DNA of 57,723 nt, taken from Candidatus Iainarchaeum sp. GTDB taxonomy: Archaea; Iainarchaeota; Iainarchaeia; Iainarchaeales; JAZDDZ01. The notes beneath the pieces were generated by a model. That model did no database searches. It saw nothing but the letters and a program-made list of their open reading frames with translations, and was not told the DNA's origin. Shown piece after piece: positions 6,293-41,447 of the stretch. The translations under genes and the position numbers were made by a program. The stretch's first letter is position 1. The number at the start of each line of letters is the position of its first letter. The stretch is taken from the NCBI GenBank assembly GCA_043809245.1, contig JAZDDZ010000004.1, positions 1-57,723 of the forward strand. Direction: 5' to 3'.

Positions 6293-7027
6293 TCAGCTTT
6301 GCTTGTTGTTTGAAACAAAGCCTTTAAGCCTTTCAACGGGAATCCGCTCGAATTCCCTTTTGCCCTCTTCAACAAATGAAAACTCCAATCGCTTGTAATC
6401 CAGTTTTTCCTTTTCGTCAAGCCCTTTTTTGAGGACGTCAACCAAAAGCTGTATTCCCGCATCAAAGGAAAGGCCTTCCTTGTAATCCTTTTCCAATAAC
6501 TCCATTGCCTTGTGCTTGTTTTTTCCAATTGCAACCGCAGTGTACTCAGCCAATGCGCCTGAGGGCTCTGTTTCAAAAAGCCTGTTGCCTGTCTCGTCAA
6601 TTCCCCCGAAAATAAATGAAACCCCGAAAGGCCTCATGCCTCCGTATTGGGTGAAAATCTGGTTAATGTTTGAAATCTCTTTCACCAATGTTTCAACGTT
6701 TATCGGCTCATCATAATACATCCTGTTTTCCTGTGCCTTCTGCCTTGCAATCTGCACCAAGCGCCTTGCATCCCCCACCAATCCAGCGCTTACAGCGACA
6801 ATGTGGTTATCCACTTTAAACATTTTTTCAATGGATTCAGGCAATAAAAGCCTGCTTGGCACCTTTTTATCCGCGCCAAATAAAACGCCTTTATCATACT
6901 TTAAGGCCGCTGCAAGCGTGCCCTGGCTCACAATTTTGCCAGCGTACTCTACTTGGTACAGCCTTCCGTCAGGCGAAAACATCGTTGCAACGCGGTCGTA
7001 ACCGCCTGTCTGAGAAACAGGGTACAT
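6293..7027 (-). CDS. psmA: Proteasome alpha subunit
   Basis: YDR..TMFSPDGRLYQVEYA, RPFGVS signatures. Confidence 0.97.
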   Translation of the reverse strand: MYPVSQTGGYDRVATMFSPDGRLYQVEYAGKIVSQGTLAAALKYDKGVLFGADKKVPSRLLLPESIEKMFKVDNHIVAVSAGLVGDARRLVQIARQKAQENRMYYDEPINVETLVKEISNINQIFTQYGGMRPFGVSFIFGGIDETGNRLFETEPSGALAEYTAVAIGKNKHKAMELLEKDYKEGLSFDAGIQLLVDVLKKGLDEKEKLDYKRLEFSFVEEGKREFERIPVERLKGFVSNNKQS

Positions 7028-7091
7028 AAACGCTCAAAACTCCTCTTTTTTCCCTATAATATATCATCTCCTATACAGTAAAATATATAAA

Positions 7092-11265: not shown

Positions 11266-11378
11266 GGGCCCGTGGTCTAGCGGTTAAGGGAAGCGGGGAT
11301 TACTTTCTGCCCGCTCACTCCGTAAATGACACCACCTTGACATGGTGGGAGTCGTCGGTTCGAATCCGGCCGGGCCCA
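11266..11378 (+). tRNA. tRNA-Val(GAC) with 40-nt intron in the D-loop (11286-11325)
   Basis: Acceptor GGGCCCG/CGGGCCC, anticodon arm CCACC-TTGACAT-GGTGG, T-loop TTCGAAT; removing 11286-11325 restores D-arm GTCTAGCGGTTATGAC. Confidence 0.92.
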
Positions 11379-37615: not shown

Positions 37616-38272
37616 CTATCGCTCCCCTAAACCCATAATTATTTTGGGGGAAAGCTGCTTTAAGCTTTTCACCACAAGCTCCGCGCCCGCTGCCTTCAAT
37701 TTCTCTGCAGGAAAAGAATTTGTCACAGCAATGCACTTCATTCCAGCTGCCTTTGCAGCATTAACGCCCTGGATTGCATCCTCTATTACAACGCATTCTT
37801 TTGGTTCCAATGAAAGCTTTTTTGCTGCAAGCAAAAAAATGTCTGGCGCTGGCTTTCCCTGCTTAACCTCGCTTGAAGAGGCAATTACAGGGATTTTTTC
37901 CTTCAAACCAATTGCCGCCAGGGCTTTTTCCACAAAAAAAGTGCGAGAACTGGAACCGACTGCAATCAAAAAACCAGAGGATTTAAGGGATTCCACCAAC
38001 TCGATTGCGCCTGGAAAAGCGGGAATTTTTTCTGCGCCGAATTCCATGAGCGCATATTTTCTTTCAAGAAGCTTTTCAGGGTCGCCTTTTTTTCCGTATT
38101 TTTTCAGCATTGCCTTGAAAAAATCACCCGCGGGAACTCCAATGAATTCATGGAGCTCCTCCATTGTAGCGGGCACGCCCATTTCATGCAATGGCTGCAA
38201 CTCGGTTTTGCAGTGCTGCTCCATTGAATCAATGAGCACGCCATCCAAATCAAAAATCACTGCTTTAATCAT
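37616..38272 (-). CDS. HAD-family phosphatase (beta-PGM-like)
   Basis: FDLDGVL.DS, KPAPD, EDA..G..AA. Confidence 0.93.
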   Translation of the reverse strand: MIKAVIFDLDGVLIDSMEQHCKTELQPLHEMGVPATMEELHEFIGVPAGDFFKAMLKKYGKKGDPEKLLERKYALMEFGAEKIPAFPGAIELVESLKSSGFLIAVGSSSRTFFVEKALAAIGLKEKIPVIASSSEVKQGKPAPDIFLLAAKKLSLEPKECVVIEDAIQGVNAAKAAGMKCIAVTNSFPAEKLKAAGAELVVKSLKQLSPKIIMGLGER

Positions 38273-39168
38273 GCGCTTTCACCAATCAGCTGCATTTTTT
38301 CATTGAAAAATTCTTCGGGGTAAAATACGAGCGGGCGCAAGACAGGCAATGCCTGCTTTTCGTCTGATTTTTTGAAATCCGATTTCAATTCCCTGTCCGC
38401 TTTCACCAATGCCTTGATTTTTTTTTCGGAAAACAATTTTTTTGAGTGCTTTTCCTCTGTCAGGGAAAATTCCCGAAAAGAATTCCATGGCTCAAGCTGC
38501 CTTAACTGTGCCAAGATTTTTTTGGAGCGCTTTTTTGCAATTGGAAAAACATTGCAGCCGCGCTTCATCAAAAGCCATGCCGCAAGCAAATCCTCTTCCT
38601 TTCCCTCAAACAAGACTGCAACGCTTCCCTCAACGCCTAGAGGAAGCCCGCCTGAACAGCGGAGTTCCGAGAAGAAAATGTAAAATGAATCCTGCTGCAC
38701 TTCAACGAAAACCTCCTTTGCTGGAGTGGAAAGATTCACTTTCAGTTTAGGGAAATGGTTCATCAATTCCCTTCCGAGAAAAATTTCAATGTCCTTTGAT
38801 GAGAAGTCATGCTCTCCGTTCCTTGAGGCTCTCACGGCAAAGGAATCGCCTTCGCGCAGAAAGCCCTTTGCGGCAGCGAGTGCTTTTTCCGCTATTGATT
38901 CAAGCGAGGCTTTTTTGTGCTCTTCCGCGAGCGCGATTGCGTGAACCCCAAAAGTGAAACGGAGCAATGAAAAGGCTTTCTCCAAGTCATCGGCAAACAA
39001 GTAAAGCCTTCCGCCTTTTCTCTCGATTTTTCGAACAGCAATTCCGTTTTTCTTTAACGCCAAGCGAATGTTCTGAACCAGTTTTTTCACGAAAAAACGC
39101 CTTACCTGCGTACTTTTAAGCGAAATCTCGGAAGCCGTTTTCACGAGAATGCAGTCCGGTACTAGCAT
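38269..39168 (-). CDS. ThiI-like THUMP-domain protein with degenerate PP-loop
   Basis: EI.LKS..VR, THUMP (FAVR..R.G.H.F.S), GGLPLG, AWLLMKRG; SGGxDS replaced by FEGKEED. Confidence 0.85.
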   Translation of the reverse strand: MLVPDCILVKTASEISLKSTQVRRFFVKKLVQNIRLALKKNGIAVRKIERKGGRLYLFADDLEKAFSLLRFTFGVHAIALAEEHKKASLESIAEKALAAAKGFLREGDSFAVRASRNGEHDFSSKDIEIFLGRELMNHFPKLKVNLSTPAKEVFVEVQQDSFYIFFSELRCSGGLPLGVEGSVAVLFEGKEEDLLAAWLLMKRGCNVFPIAKKRSKKILAQLRQLEPWNSFREFSLTEEKHSKKLFSEKKIKALVKADRELKSDFKKSDEKQALPVLRPLVFYPEEFFNEKMQLIGESA

Positions 39169-39212
39169 AAAGAGATTTAAATGCATTAGGGTTAAAATAT
39201 TACTGAATCAAA

Positions 39213-39266
39213 ATGAGCGCCCAAAACAACAAGGCCTGCAATTGCTGCTGTTGCTGTTGTTGTTAG
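39213..39266 (+). CDS. Poly-cysteine leader peptide MSAQNNKACNCCCCCCC (not in the ORF track)
   Basis: ATG AGC GCC CAA AAC AAC AAG GCC TGC AAT TGC TGC TGT TGC TGT TGT TGT TAG, 49 nt before cysE. Confidence 0.8.
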   Translation: MSAQNNKACNCCCCCCC

Positions 39267-39315
39267 CGGGCCCGCTCAAAAAACAATTTAACGATTTTTT
39301 GGGGGGTTAAAAAAA
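39213..39315 (+). promoter_or_regulatory. Candidate cysteine-responsive attenuator of cysE
   Basis: Leader peptide plus stems 39225-39232/39257-39264, 39265-39276 and 39275-39283/39295-39303; the last overlaps the G-rich SD-like tract. Confidence 0.7.
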
Positions 39316-39975
39316 ATGAGCCAAGGGCATGACGCGCAAAAAAAGAATTTCCTGCAGTTGATCTGGCGGGACATGAAGGCGGTTCCCGCAAACGACCCTG
39401 CTTCAAGGGGAGTGCTTGATGCATTAATCTGCCATCACCCATTGCATGCGATAATCGTGCACCGCCTGGTGCATCCATTGTACACCTGGCGTGTGCCGCT
39501 GCTGCCTAGGTTTATCGCGAATTTCGCGCGCTTCTGGAGCGGGGTTGAAATCCACCCCGGCGCGGAAATAGGGGAAAGCTTTTTCATTGACCACGGCACT
39601 GGAACAGTCATTGGGGAAACAACCAAGATTGGAAAAAACTGCGTTGTATTTCAGCAGGTTACTTTGGGGGGCACTGGAAAGCACAAGGGAAAAAGGCATC
39701 CAACGCTTGGGGACAATGTTTACGTAGGGGTTGGAAGCATTCTGTTGGGCCCGATTAAAGCAGGAGAGAACGCGAAAATCGGCGCGAATTCCTTTGTGTT
39801 AATGCATGACATTCCCGCGAATGCAACGGTTGTCGGAAACCCTGCAAGGATTATTAGACTGGATGGGAAGAAAGTGAATCTAGAGCTTCCAAAGACATCT
39901 GATCAGCAGGTTGAACAAGAAAATAATGGGGCACAAACTTCAAACGTTAAACCTGCTGAGACCCAAACAATTTAA
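39316..39975 (+). CDS. cysE: Serine O-acetyltransferase
   Basis: NDPA, GVEIHPGA.IG..FFIDHGTG.VIGET, VTLGGTGK..GKRHPT. Confidence 0.95.
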   Translation: MSQGHDAQKKNFLQLIWRDMKAVPANDPASRGVLDALICHHPLHAIIVHRLVHPLYTWRVPLLPRFIANFARFWSGVEIHPGAEIGESFFIDHGTGTVIGETTKIGKNCVVFQQVTLGGTGKHKGKRHPTLGDNVYVGVGSILLGPIKAGENAKIGANSFVLMHDIPANATVVGNPARIIRLDGKKVNLELPKTSDQQVEQENNGAQTSNVKPAETQTI

Positions 39976-40030
39976 ATCCAAACGGAGGATAGAATTTGTT
40001 TAAGCCTTTCAATGCGAACGGAGCTGTGGT

Positions 40031-40098
40031 GCGTCATGCGAGGCGAAAGCCGAGCAAGCCTCCCTGAAGGGGATGCCCGTACCCGGCGGACGTGACGC
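40031..40098 (+). ncRNA. Candidate structured RNA abutting tRNA-Cys
   Basis: 8-bp closing stem GCGTCATG/CGTGACGC enclosing a GGC-GAAA-GCC hairpin with tandem GA pairs and two more stems; TTTAAG box ~30 nt upstream. Confidence 0.55.
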
Positions 40099-40099
40099 C

Positions 40100-40171
40100 G
40101 CTGAGGTGGCAGAGAGGCTATGCATCGGCCTGCAGAGCCGAAGATCGTGGGTTCGAATCCCACCCTCAGCT
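40100..40171 (+). tRNA. tRNA-Cys(GCA)
   Basis: GCTGAGG/CCTCAGC acceptor, U73, anticodon arm TCGGC-CTGCAGA-GCCGA, TTCGAAT T-loop. Confidence 0.96.
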
Positions 40172-40205
40172 CTAATAAAACGGTGATAAGCTTCTGGCTT
40201 TTTAT

Positions 40206-41447
40206 ATGCCAAAAACCGAAAGGGTTTTTATGGCAAAGAAAAAAGAAAAGCCGGAACTGTTTGATATTCACGGATCCGCTGAATTACTGAAAGGCAGCAT
40301 TAAGCGATTAAAGGAAAGCAAAGCCACGGACAAAAACAAAAAACTTATTTTGGCGTTCATTAATAGCTGCGTTACTTCTGGCAACCGCGGCACACACCGG
40401 CGCAACAAATACCTTTTTCACTTAAAGGTAATAGCTGAACGAATAGGCAAAGACTTAGACAAGGCACAAAAAAAGGACATTGAAGCCTTTGTTACTTGGC
40501 TTGAAAAAAGCGATTACGGCGACAACACACGCCGCGACTTCAGGGGCTGTTTAAAGGTATTCTTTAAATGGCTGGAAGCCGAACGGCTTAAAATAAGTGT
40601 TCGGGAATTAGAACAGCAAAGAAAAGAACCCGCTACTGTCGCCTGGTTTAGCACCGGCGGAAAAAAGAACGGAATAACGCTGCCGCAACAAATACTTAAC
40701 GAGGACGACATTATTTTGTTGTTGAACAACACAACCTGCAGCCGCGACCGCGCCTTTATTTCGGTTTTATACGAAAGCGCGGGAAGGATCGGGGAAATTG
40801 GAAGCCTGAAAATTGGCAGTATTGCCTTTGACGAATTCGGCTGCAAAATTTCCGTTAGCGGAAAGACCGGCGACCGCGTTATAAGGTGCATTACCTGCAC
40901 CAAATTTTTACAAACCTGGCTGAACGAGCATCAGCTAAACGGCGATCTGAACGCGCCTTTGTGGATTGGAAAGCAAACAAAAAAACCGATTGAATACGCT
41001 GGCTTGGCAAAAATAATTAAGCAGGCAGCACGCAGGGCCGGGCTGCAGAAGCCGATAAACCCGCACGCCTTCCGGCACGCGCGATTGACGGCATTGGCGA
41101 AGGTTTTGAAAGAGGCGCAATTAACGCTTTTTGCGGGCTGGACTTCTTCGGATCAATGCAAGACCTATGTTCACTTATCGCAGCGTGACGTGGACGACGC
41201 GATCCTGGGCGCTTATGGATTGAAGGAAAAGCCGTCCGAAGAAAAAAGCAAGCTGCTGCCCCGCGTCTGCATTTACTGCACCGAACCCAATGAACCCACT
41301 GCCCTTTTTTGCAGCAAATGCCTAAAACCCTTAACTTTGCAGGCCGCCCAACAATATGAAACGGAATTCCAGGAAAAATGGCTGCGCCTGCGCGAAATGG
41401 AAACCAGGCTTGCGTTAGTGGAACAAATGCTTAAAGCGAAAAAATAA
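40206..41447 (+). CDS. Tyrosine recombinase/integrase with C-terminal Zn ribbon
   Basis: SAGRIGE, GKTG, HAFRH, AGW, KTYVH; CIYC..CSKC; alternative start at 40230. Confidence 0.94.
   Translation: MPKTERVFMAKKKEKPELFDIHGSAELLKGSIKRLKESKATDKNKKLILAFINSCVTSGNRGTHRRNKYLFHLKVIAERIGKDLDKAQKKDIEAFVTWLEKSDYGDNTRRDFRGCLKVFFKWLEAERLKISVRELEQQRKEPATVAWFSTGGKKNGITLPQQILNEDDIILLLNNTTCSRDRAFISVLYESAGRIGEIGSLKIGSIAFDEFGCKISVSGKTGDRVIRCITCTKFLQTWLNEHQLNGDLNAPLWIGKQTKKPIEYAGLAKIIKQAARRAGLQKPINPHAFRHARLTALAKVLKEAQLTLFAGWTSSDQCKTYVHLSQRDVDDAILGAYGLKEKPSEEKSKLLPRVCIYCTEPNEPTALFCSKCLKPLTLQAAQQYETEFQEKWLRLREMETRLALVEQMLKAKK

Follow-up and report, generated by a model that had tools for sequence, protein, structure and literature searches.

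The question raised by the cysE locus of Candidatus Iainarchaeum sp. is whether an archaeon may adjust its cysteine synthesis through ribosomes that read a run of cysteine codons just ahead of the gene. The locus lies in a stretch of DNA of 57,723 nt (contig JAZDDZ010000004.1 of assembly GCA_043809245.1, positions 1 to 57,723 of the forward strand), which was analysed over its full length and is referred to here as the window; the genome under study is designated G000, its relatives Gnnn, and individual loci Lnnn. Between a divergent ThiI-like gene and cysE, which encodes a serine O-acetyltransferase, there is an open reading frame (ORF) of only 17 codons that ends in cysteine codons, and which a first-pass annotation had interpreted as a ribosome-stalling attenuator. 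This interpretation is supported as far as the sequence can take it, and the ORF is probably (with a probability of roughly 0.6) a cis-acting leader that gauges charged tRNA-Cys and sets the expression of cysE or, in the relatives, of cysK or a cysK-cysE operon. Within this reading, we infer the transcription and translation of the ORF, the stalling of the ribosomes, the sign and size of the response, and an output that is translational rather than transcriptional.

The leader ORF occupies positions 39213 to 39266 of the plus strand, from an ATG at 39213-39215 to a TAG at 39264-39266, and its 17 codons encode the peptide MSAQNNKACNCCCCCCC. Cysteine takes eight of the nine final codons, in a block (39237-39263) composed of TGC AAT and seven consecutive TGY codons (Y being C or T), i.e., TGC TGC TGT TGC TGT TGT TGT, and a gap of 49 nt (39267-39315) separates the stop from the ATG of cysE at 39316, in agreement with the first-pass annotation. 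The identification of the downstream gene as a serine acetyltransferase also holds, given that the 219-aa product of cysE (39316-39975, plus strand) scores 204.1 bits against the NCBIfam model NF041874 (cut-off 150) and 200.2 bits against TIGR01172, slightly below the cut-off of 210.65, and contains a Hexapep domain (Pfam). This is the single true copy of cysE in G000, the next match having an E-value of 4.9e-5. As the genome encodes cysE, cysK, a cysteinyl-tRNA synthetase (CysRS; 545.7 bits, cut-off 340) and one tRNA-Cys, the signal needed by the sensor model exists.

When both strands of the whole genome are counted, there are 270 runs of at least three TGY codons, 23 of at least four, four of at least five and two of at least six, and the sole run of at least seven in the 1.48 Mb of G000 is that of the leader ORF. 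When the whole genome was scanned, seven intergenic short ORFs proved to have three or more Cys in their last six residues; two of these candidates, the leader ORF and MPDKKIKSAKKELKEEKAGCCCCCD, the latter ahead of a putative metal ATPase gene, combine an ATG start with a gene directly downstream, and only the leader ORF has a cysteine gene as its neighbour. The Cys frame is also the only one of the six frames in which an ATG-to-stop ORF is kept in all six close homologues. Two other ORFs that overlap the leader were rejected, the first being a 53-aa poly-Leu ORF at 39149-39310, which has stops or lacks a start in the homologues, and the second a 23-aa ORF on the minus strand at 39208-39279, which is broken by stops or startless there.

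The comparison with relatives was based on a phylum set of 215 species-level genomes of about 0.3-1.5 Mb each, 196 of which come from one order. A DNA search of this set returned full-length matches to the leader only in G027 and G045 (E = 1.8e-26 and 6.1e-25). In G045 and G027, which belong to another family, the leaders MSGQNNKKKCTCNCCCCCCC and MSGQDNKKKCTCKCCCCCCC stand before a cysK-cysE operon and are divergent from the ThiI-like gene. The leader DNA of G000 is 76% identical to that of these two genomes, whereas the flanking genes reach 59-60% (cysE) and 55-57% (the ThiI-like gene, over its first 300 nt), and the differences in the Cys codons are exclusively TGC/TGT swaps. Across the three genomes, the alignment takes in the TTTAAA(T/G)G motif, another box of sequence TT(A/T)AAATATTACTGA, and the start codon, Cys run and TAG of the ORF, and the three peptides share an N-terminus, MS.Q(N/D)NK, which varies across families. 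A partial match in G105 corresponds to the short ORF MKTNNARPCNCCCCCYC, located between the ThiI-like gene and cysK; the ThiI-like gene is divergent from an adjoining short ORF in G045, G027 and G105, as it is in G000.

Two scans were made for such ORFs elsewhere. The first covered the 500 nt before cysE in six cysE loci of relatives and in 80 metagenome loci, found none, and missed the leaders of G045 and G027 because they precede cysK and not cysE; the second ran a pattern of six TGY codons across the 196 genomes of the order, and matched the cysE contigs of both genomes about 1 kb upstream of cysE. The cysK gene is present in 28 of these 196 genomes. When the region of G000 itself is excluded, a strict rule, under which a short ORF must have 5-45 residues, contain three or more Cys among the final six and lie no more than 400 nt upstream of cysK, applied to 8 of 27 cysK upstream regions, those of G045, G027, G105, G041, G005, G003, G007 and G089, which span six genera and six families. 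Only 1.5% of 20,000 random 410-nt windows, drawn from the loci compared within the order, complied with this rule (binomial p = 3.5e-9). Under a loose rule, in which at least two Cys are present in the last eight residues, the corresponding values are 12 of the 27 regions (one of which, that of G179, is read as spurious) and 15.7% of the random windows (binomial p = 3.8e-4). Both p-values overstate the enrichment, given that the genomes are related, and the fairer figure is that of six independent genera.

The peptides of this family, which also include MNKVKAEKKCNCCCCH (G041) and MVFLNRILCKCANCCCCC (G005) before cysK, have 13-24 residues, and their common part is the C-terminal Cys run, often C-N-C-C-C-C, which is kept in seven genera while the N-termini vary, and which ends at the stop codon or one to two codons ahead of it in all the members. 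The G000 leader shows hallmarks of an attenuator, in that it is a short ORF before a gene of the same amino acid, and its regulated codons are conserved while the rest varies. The first-pass annotation had staked its reading on the presence of such an ORF in relatives, and Cys-run ORFs, some homologous to the leader and others analogous, were found in at least six other genera of the order, before cysK or cysK-cysE. Of the two origins that it had left standing, the one that applies is a native element of the lineage, not one that arrived together with cysE, because the same slot between the ThiI-like gene and tRNA-Cys is kept in several families and because the first gene after the leader in the relatives is cysK. 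In G000, cysK is found elsewhere, on contig 8, where it follows a gene read as NifU-like and has no leader ORF upstream, and this genome is the only one, among the cysE regions examined, in which the leader abuts cysE. The G-run that follows the U6 tract of the G000 spacer resembles the G-run at the cysK-cysE junction of G027, and cysK was presumably deleted between these two G-runs in the lineage of G000.

Other cysteine loci were also inspected. The metagenome relatives of cysE (160 found, 80 loci kept, the best being 61% identical) have no C-terminal Cys-run ORF within 500 nt upstream, and no such ORF was found over the whole of the same 80 loci, except in L084 (minus strand) and L091 (860-922), which share an ORF ...KYPLPVHV(P/S)TCCC.. 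about 2 kb from cysE. The sole cysK-bearing genome found outside the order, G214, from the second order of the phylum, has no Cys-ended ORF. In L002 (G058) and L006 (G043), which belong to another family, a ThiI-like gene is divergent from cysE across an intergenic region of about 60 nt with no short ORF, and these two genomes are natural leader-less comparators. Six genomes (L174, L182, L183, L186, L196 and L197) have no Cys-ended ORF, and cysK directly follows a small ORF (...LSQKEI...RTVRYNL..L...GLV...W.DLRQK...), which looks like a winged-helix regulator and may represent an alternative control. In the A/T-rich families (L180 from G003, L184 from G051, L173 from G007, L190 from G078 and L192 from G089), the Cys-ended ORF is separated from cysK by another short ORF (such as MKEKISIGKIKLGERRCQ) that has a strong GGAGG site and overlaps the apparent cysK start in a different frame, and the block CGGTGTCA is conserved there; this second ORF may serve for translational coupling or as a second regulatory ORF. 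One other peptide, MKCKCCCCCCECKQKK (L131, G120:C62, 1486-1539), has a GGAGGTG site and lies between an ArsR-like ORF and a gene that, from its N-terminal sequence, looks like one for a cysteine desulfurase.

The TTTAAA noted by the first-pass annotation at 39176-39181 is present, and forms part of a TATA-like box, TTTAAATG (39176-39183, plus strand), which is conserved in G045 and G027 and is the candidate promoter of the leader and cysE. Based on the usual archaeal distance from TATA box to start, transcription from this box is predicted to begin at about 39205-39206, which leaves a 5' untranslated region (UTR) of about 7-8 nt. Of the 10 leaders with 60 nt of sequence upstream, 7 have a TTTA[AT]A motif that starts 29-30 nt ahead of the ATG (the 8-mer being centred at -25.5 or -26.5), a spacing that predicts leaderless mRNAs; in G000 (37), G045 and G027, the distance is 36-37 nt, which predicts a 5' UTR of about 7 nt. 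A second conserved A/T box, TTAAAATATTA (39192-39202), recognised from the sequence and its alignment, is a candidate TATA box of the ThiI-like gene, being centred about 29 nt from its ATG, or alternatively a second promoter on the plus strand, from which transcription would start inside the short ORF. The ThiI-like gene itself (38269-39168, minus strand) has a ThiI ferredoxin-like domain (PF22025), a THUMP domain (PF02926) and a partial match to TIGR00342, and likely starts at its second Met, at 39168; its homologues in G045 and G027 start with MLSPNC, in alignment with MLVPDC. The ThiI-like gene and the short ORF of G105 have start codons only 36 nt apart, each beside the A/T box of the other.

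The spacer between the leader and cysE provides the candidate output of the sensor. From the stop to the cysE start, the minimum free energy (MFE) structure in G000 is a single hairpin, whose energy of -14.3 kcal/mol corresponds to z = -2.64 relative to 200 mononucleotide shuffles. The 5' arm (39269-39284, plus strand) comprises GGCCC-G-CUC, interpreted as an anti-Shine-Dalgarno segment, and then A6 and C; the loop, AAUUUAAC, covers 39285-39292; and the 3' arm (39293-39308) consists of G-A-U6, with the U6 at 39295-39300, a G6 at 39301-39306, and UU. In this structure, GGCCC (39269-39273) pairs with GGGUU (39304-39308), G39274 is bulged, and CUC-A6-C (39275-39284) pairs with G-(A)-U6-GGG (39293-39303). 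The G6 is the Shine-Dalgarno site of cysE, 9 nt before the ATG, and lies entirely inside the stem; the 16S rRNA 3' end, GGAUCACCUCCU, can pair with this G-run through its CCUCC, with one G-U pair. Across the three full-length homologues, the arm sequences CTCAAAAA and TTTTTTGGGGG do not change, while the loop between them varies.

Alternative pairings around the Cys codons had been proposed by the first-pass annotation, and their segments lie where it placed them, i.e., AACAACAA at 39225-39232, TTGTTGTT at 39257-39264, AGCGGGCCCGCT at 39265-39276, CTCAAAAAA at 39275-39283 and TTTTTTGGG at 39295-39303. The pairing of CTCAAAAAA with TTTTTTGGG, over the U6 and part of the G-run, forms part of the predicted spacer hairpin. 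The other elements need some revision: the pairing of AACAACAA with TTGTTGTT is present but, among the homologues, does not extend beyond the two closest, the palindrome at the stop is real but is more aptly taken as the outer 5' arm of the A6/U6 hairpin, which pairs with the Shine-Dalgarno G-run, and the U6 tract, although present, is not by itself unusual in G000. The structures predicted for G000 place the Cys codons opposite AACAACAA within the ORF, and the Shine-Dalgarno site opposite the post-stop segment.

Similar pairings are predicted in some of the relatives. In the MFE structures of G045 and G027, the post-stop AGACCUCUCUC pairs with the Shine-Dalgarno region of cysK (AGAGAGAUGG and AGAGAGGUGA), with an A/U stem nested inside, and the post-stop segments of G041 (CGCCC) and G105 (AAGCAUCGGC) pair with GGGUG and GUUGA-GUGUU, respectively, just before a possible UUG start in each case. 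When the 14 nt after the stop were tested as a duplex against the 19 nt before the downstream start, the cognate duplexes reached -10.2 to -13.2 kcal/mol in G000, G045, G027, G105 and G041, in comparison with non-cognate means of -5.5 to -8.2, and, when partners were shuffled 20,000 times, a mean as good as the observed one arose twice with all 12 leaders, and 258 times with eight leaders (one per genus). The cognate pairing of the post-stop segment with the Shine-Dalgarno site is thus supported in three genera. A ribosome was then represented by a masked footprint that reaches 12 nt upstream and 15 nt downstream of the first P-site base. With this footprint on the last Cys codons or the stop, the predicted unpaired fraction of the Shine-Dalgarno site increased from 0.17 to 0.22-0.33 in G000, from 0.18 to as much as 0.52 in G045, and from 0.29 to as much as 0.61 in G027.

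The mechanism that we propose would run as follows. Transcription would start from the TTTAAATG box about 7 nt before the ATG, which would make the short ORF the first, nearly leaderless cistron of the mRNA. When Cys-tRNA is plentiful, the ribosomes would pass the eight Cys codons and exit at the UAG, and the spacer could then form its 15-bp hairpin (39269-39284 with 39293-39308), in which the post-stop GGCCCGCUC and the A6 would pair with the U6 and the G6 of the Shine-Dalgarno site, leaving cysE poorly translated. When Cys-tRNA is scarce, the ribosomes would linger on the Cys codons, and a ribosome on the last two to three of them would cover the first post-stop bases, loosening the outer hairpin and exposing the Shine-Dalgarno site. 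Under this model, the Cys run would abut the stop in all the members because a ribosome located there must cover the post-stop bases, and the post-stop segment would differ between G000, in which the Shine-Dalgarno sequence is GGGGGG, and G045/G027, in which it is GAGAGGUGA, because its partner is the Shine-Dalgarno site itself.

A number of points weigh against the leader as a sensor of this type. The strict rule failed in 19 of the 27 cysK upstream regions, and, although cysE is found in 24 of the 196 genomes of the order, no Cys-ended ORF lies directly upstream of it in any of the 17 other genomes examined (four further cysE-bearing genomes are outside this count). All the genomes compared are assemblies from uncultured organisms, and the full-length leaders number only three, two of them from one genus, which are too few for covariation. 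The leader as a whole (39205-39330) is no more stable than its shuffles (z = -0.52, with 57 of 200 being as good), and the downstream start codons adopted for G105 and G041 are guesses. The A/T-rich leaders of G003, G007, G078, G089 and G159 present no cognate pairing, so that the output step is not uniform across the order. Finally, the unmasking predicted for G000 is small and requires a ribosome on the last Cys codons or the stop, stalls on earlier Cys codons have zero predicted effect, and the unpaired fraction in G005 (0.40) does not rise with masking.

The sensor may also be linked to the supply of its own tRNA. The tRNA-Cys (GCA) gene lies at 40100-40172 on the plus strand, 124 nt after cysE, and is the only tRNA-Cys detected in the assembly, being one of the 28 tRNAs found in G000 by ARAGORN. 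Of the 12 places inspected (the window and 11 other loci), six have a tRNA-Cys(GCA) downstream of the cys genes in the same orientation, namely those in G000, G045, G027, G043, G105 and G041. A TTTAAAT box (39971-39977, plus strand) overlaps the cysE stop, with a similar box in G045 and G027, and may be an internal promoter of tRNA-Cys with a leader of about 100 nt; the tRNA may thus be co-transcribed with cysE or have its own promoter with such a leader. A reading of the spacer between cysE and tRNA-Cys revealed no T run of five or more. This spacer is of 90-125 nt and G+C-rich (window 39976-40099; L004 2083-2201; L005 2083-2175), the blocks GCGAGGC...GCCGAG and CCC.GAAGGGG being common to the three genomes, and its alignment gave a weak consensus structure and no Rfam match. 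In the most extended form of the proposal, archaeal ribosome-mediated attenuation would govern one cysteine unit, made up of the nearly leaderless sensor ORF, the cys gene or genes and the sole tRNA-Cys, and the charging of the tRNA would feed back, via read-through of the U6, on both synthesis and tRNA supply, a scenario that we consider unlikely.

The rival explanation that survives best retains the same sensor but gives it a transcriptional output, in which the U6 at 39295-39300 would be an oligo-U signal for termination or cleavage, and the position of the ribosome on the Cys codons would decide the read-through into cysE and perhaps tRNA-Cys. In PMC13675443, archaeal RNA polymerase is described as terminating at oligo-T, and aCPSF1/FttA as recognising U tracts, and this sensitivity of archaeal transcription to oligo-U favours such an output. 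So does the run of 6-8 T that can be read in 9 of the 12 leaders, downstream of the short ORF and ahead of the following start, together with the perfect 12-bp hairpin of G003, which extends from the stop codon and is followed by U7, in the shape of a classical terminator; given the spacer free of T runs described above, read-through would also reach the tRNA. However, a run of at least six T is found in 17.5% of the 60-nt stretches before long ORFs in G000, in comparison with 23% after them, and the T run of G105 and G041 may merely separate the Shine-Dalgarno-like GGGUGAU from the UUG start. The hallmark of terminator-type (trp/his) attenuation is absent from the G000 leader, considering that the terminator scan of 38900-40300 found no sites and that the U6 is inside the stem, not after it. 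Furthermore, the simplest form of coupling, in which a stall leaves the polymerase uncoupled and increases termination, has the wrong sign for a biosynthetic gene, and a transcriptional output thus appears unlikely.

Another explanation dispenses with the sensor, and takes the product of the ORF to be a working thiol-rich small peptide that binds metal or sulfur and is made together with the enzymes of cysteine synthesis. This would be in keeping with the neighbouring ThiI-like gene, which handles sulfur, with the N-terminus MS.Q(N/D)NK kept between G000 and G045/G027, and with the existence of another Cys-run peptide gene in G000, MPDKKIKSAKKELKEEKAGCCCCCD, which has a good Shine-Dalgarno sequence and precedes a gene with a heavy-metal motif. 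Across families, however, conservation is limited to the C-terminal Cys run and its position, while the length (13-24 residues) and the N-terminus vary, and the N-terminal similarity to G045 and G027 is equalled by the conservation of the surrounding non-coding DNA. The association is also specific to cysK and cysE, and the run is always at the stop or one to two codons before it, beside a regulatory spacer, all of which makes a working peptide very unlikely.

The MPDKKIKSAKKELKEEKAGCCCCCD gene is located on contig C46 of G000 (minus strand, reverse-complement coordinates 1988-2065), with GGAGG before its ATG, 36 nt before the next gene and after a Met/His-rich ORF. The gene that follows begins ...GVSGMHCAACA, which we take to be a heavy-metal-binding motif, and MPDKKIKSAKKELKEEKAGCCCCCD may be a metal-binding peptide or the leader of a metal pump. 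One further ORF of 73 aa, on contig C10 (minus strand, reverse-complement 6852-7073), has an N-terminus rich in Cys and His, two hydrophobic segments and CCCC at its C-terminus, and looks like a small membrane protein.

Lastly, a functionless chance trinucleotide repeat in the promoter region is hardly credible and was rejected, since, although the other frames of the repeat read poly-Leu, poly-Ala/Val or poly-Gln and 0 of the 80 metagenome cysE loci carry a poly-Cys ORF, the run is conserved across families with the Cys frame alone remaining open, Cys-ended ORFs are enriched before cysK, and the leader is conserved above its flanking genes. A known RNA family was rejected too, given that the leader has no match in Rfam 15, in which tRNAs alone reach the threshold in the window and nothing relevant appears in 39100-40250 at E-values up to 1.

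The logic of the proposed leader is familiar from bacteria. The leader peptides of the his, trp, leu and thr attenuators of enterobacteria carry an excess of codons for the amino acid that is regulated, and that of his, like the G000 leader, contains seven such codons in succession; the enterobacterial systems, however, employ a terminator and an antiterminator that are read by the bacterial polymerase, and no such terminator is seen in the G000 leader. In Mycobacterium smegmatis, experiments have established that polycysteine leaderless short ORFs (Ms5788A, the "Cys ribulon") act as translational attenuators that respond to cysteine (Canestrari et al., bioRxiv 10.1101/834739). These ORFs resemble the G000 leader in their location at the 5' end of the mRNA (the G000 ORF being predicted to lie at or near that end), in a Cys run near the stop and in their position upstream of cysteine genes. 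On the other hand, the two belong to different domains of life, with different promoters and translation apparatus, and are unrelated in sequence. The partner of the Shine-Dalgarno region is formed by the Cys codons themselves in Ms5788A, whereas in G000 it is predicted to be the post-stop segment and the A tract; mycobacteria have at least six poly-Cys loci per genome, while G000 has one linked to cysteine genes; and the role of the mycobacterial ORFs is proven by experiment, while that of the G000 leader is predicted from its sequence.

Two sets of predictions are also comparable. The uORFC-8-2 before cysS in Rhodobacterales is a predicted Cys-codon ribosome-mediated attenuator (PMC8632094), which shares with the G000 leader the Cys codons in an ORF upstream of a cysteine-related gene, and differs from it in being bacterial, in preceding cysS and not cysK or cysE, and in having two tandem Cys codons at positions 14-15 within a stem, followed by a terminator stem and a U run. 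Cys-run leader peptides were predicted in 2005 ahead of the cys operons of Mycobacterium and Propionibacterium and ahead of cbs in Bifidobacterium (PMC1262725), and, like the G000 leader, they have a Cys run near the stop, are associated with cysteine genes and lack a classical terminator hairpin; unlike it, they are actinobacterial, and Rho-dependent termination was proposed for them.

For a bacterial comparison, species genomes were scanned for six TGY codons followed by TAA or TAG, which gave at least 120 stretches, 80 of which were made into loci. Among the matches listed, Cys-ended ORFs with six to eight Cys codons are found in Bacteroidota 50-200 nt before cysS (two cases), and also before the genes of an APS/PAPS reductase, an O-succinylhomoserine sulfhydrylase and two O-acetylhomoserine sulfhydrylases, and before a gene that matches thioredoxin reductase only in part and below the cut-off (loci L207, L210, L212, L224, L241, L257 and L259). 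In three other loci of Flavobacterium type (L217, L240 and L252), an ORF of the form M..NKRN.FNF......ANMRMCCCCCCC precedes the gene of a 268-aa protein without an NCBIfam match. A search of the literature found no paper that describes these Bacteroidota ORFs. Considering the published cases and the Bacteroidota scan, poly-Cys leaders are known and widespread in bacteria. For archaea, the first-pass annotation had known of no such leader, and full-text searches of the literature, supplementary files not being covered, brought up no leader-peptide attenuator from an archaeon; we know of no described example of archaeal leader-peptide attenuation. Judging from the sequences, the G000 leader most likely works like the bacterial poly-Cys leaders without belonging to their family by descent, and differs from them in the RNA segment that would hide the ribosome-binding site.

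That the host is an archaeon, as had been supposed at the outset, is established by an archaeal small-subunit rRNA (full-length, 1417.9 bits), by the part of the archaeal large-subunit rRNA that was recovered, and by MCM and both topoisomerase VI subunits, which are encoded within the window. The G000 assembly has 1.48 Mb in 55 contigs, is 91.8% complete, and presumably represents a small-genome, DPANN-like archaeon. A look-up of sequencing runs listed just one DNA run, which shared a small fraction of its words, and no run recorded as RNA. Directly after tRNA-Cys, the window contains a tyrosine-recombinase gene (40206-41447), which is followed by ORFs without Pfam matches, and a low-G+C stretch (0.36-0.39) is found at 46-50 kb; these features suggest an integrated element, and no repeat of the tRNA-Cys 3' end that would mark an attachment site was found beyond the integrase. 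Elsewhere in the window, at 11266-11378, Rfam recognises a tRNA over 113 nt that is absent from the ARAGORN report and presumably carries an intron.

The control of gene expression by ribosomes that stall on a leader peptide is a textbook bacterial mechanism, and one that needs translation to be coupled to the fate of the same mRNA. If the G000 leader is indeed a cysteine sensor, the logic of attenuation would also have evolved with archaeal promoters, leaderless initiation and archaeal ribosomes, and the leader, as a compact sequence of about 150 nt, is testable in a tractable archaeon. Its link to the single tRNA-Cys gene raises the question of whether the supply of this tRNA is co-regulated, and organisms that are often deemed metabolically minimal would, in this case, still regulate their cysteine supply.

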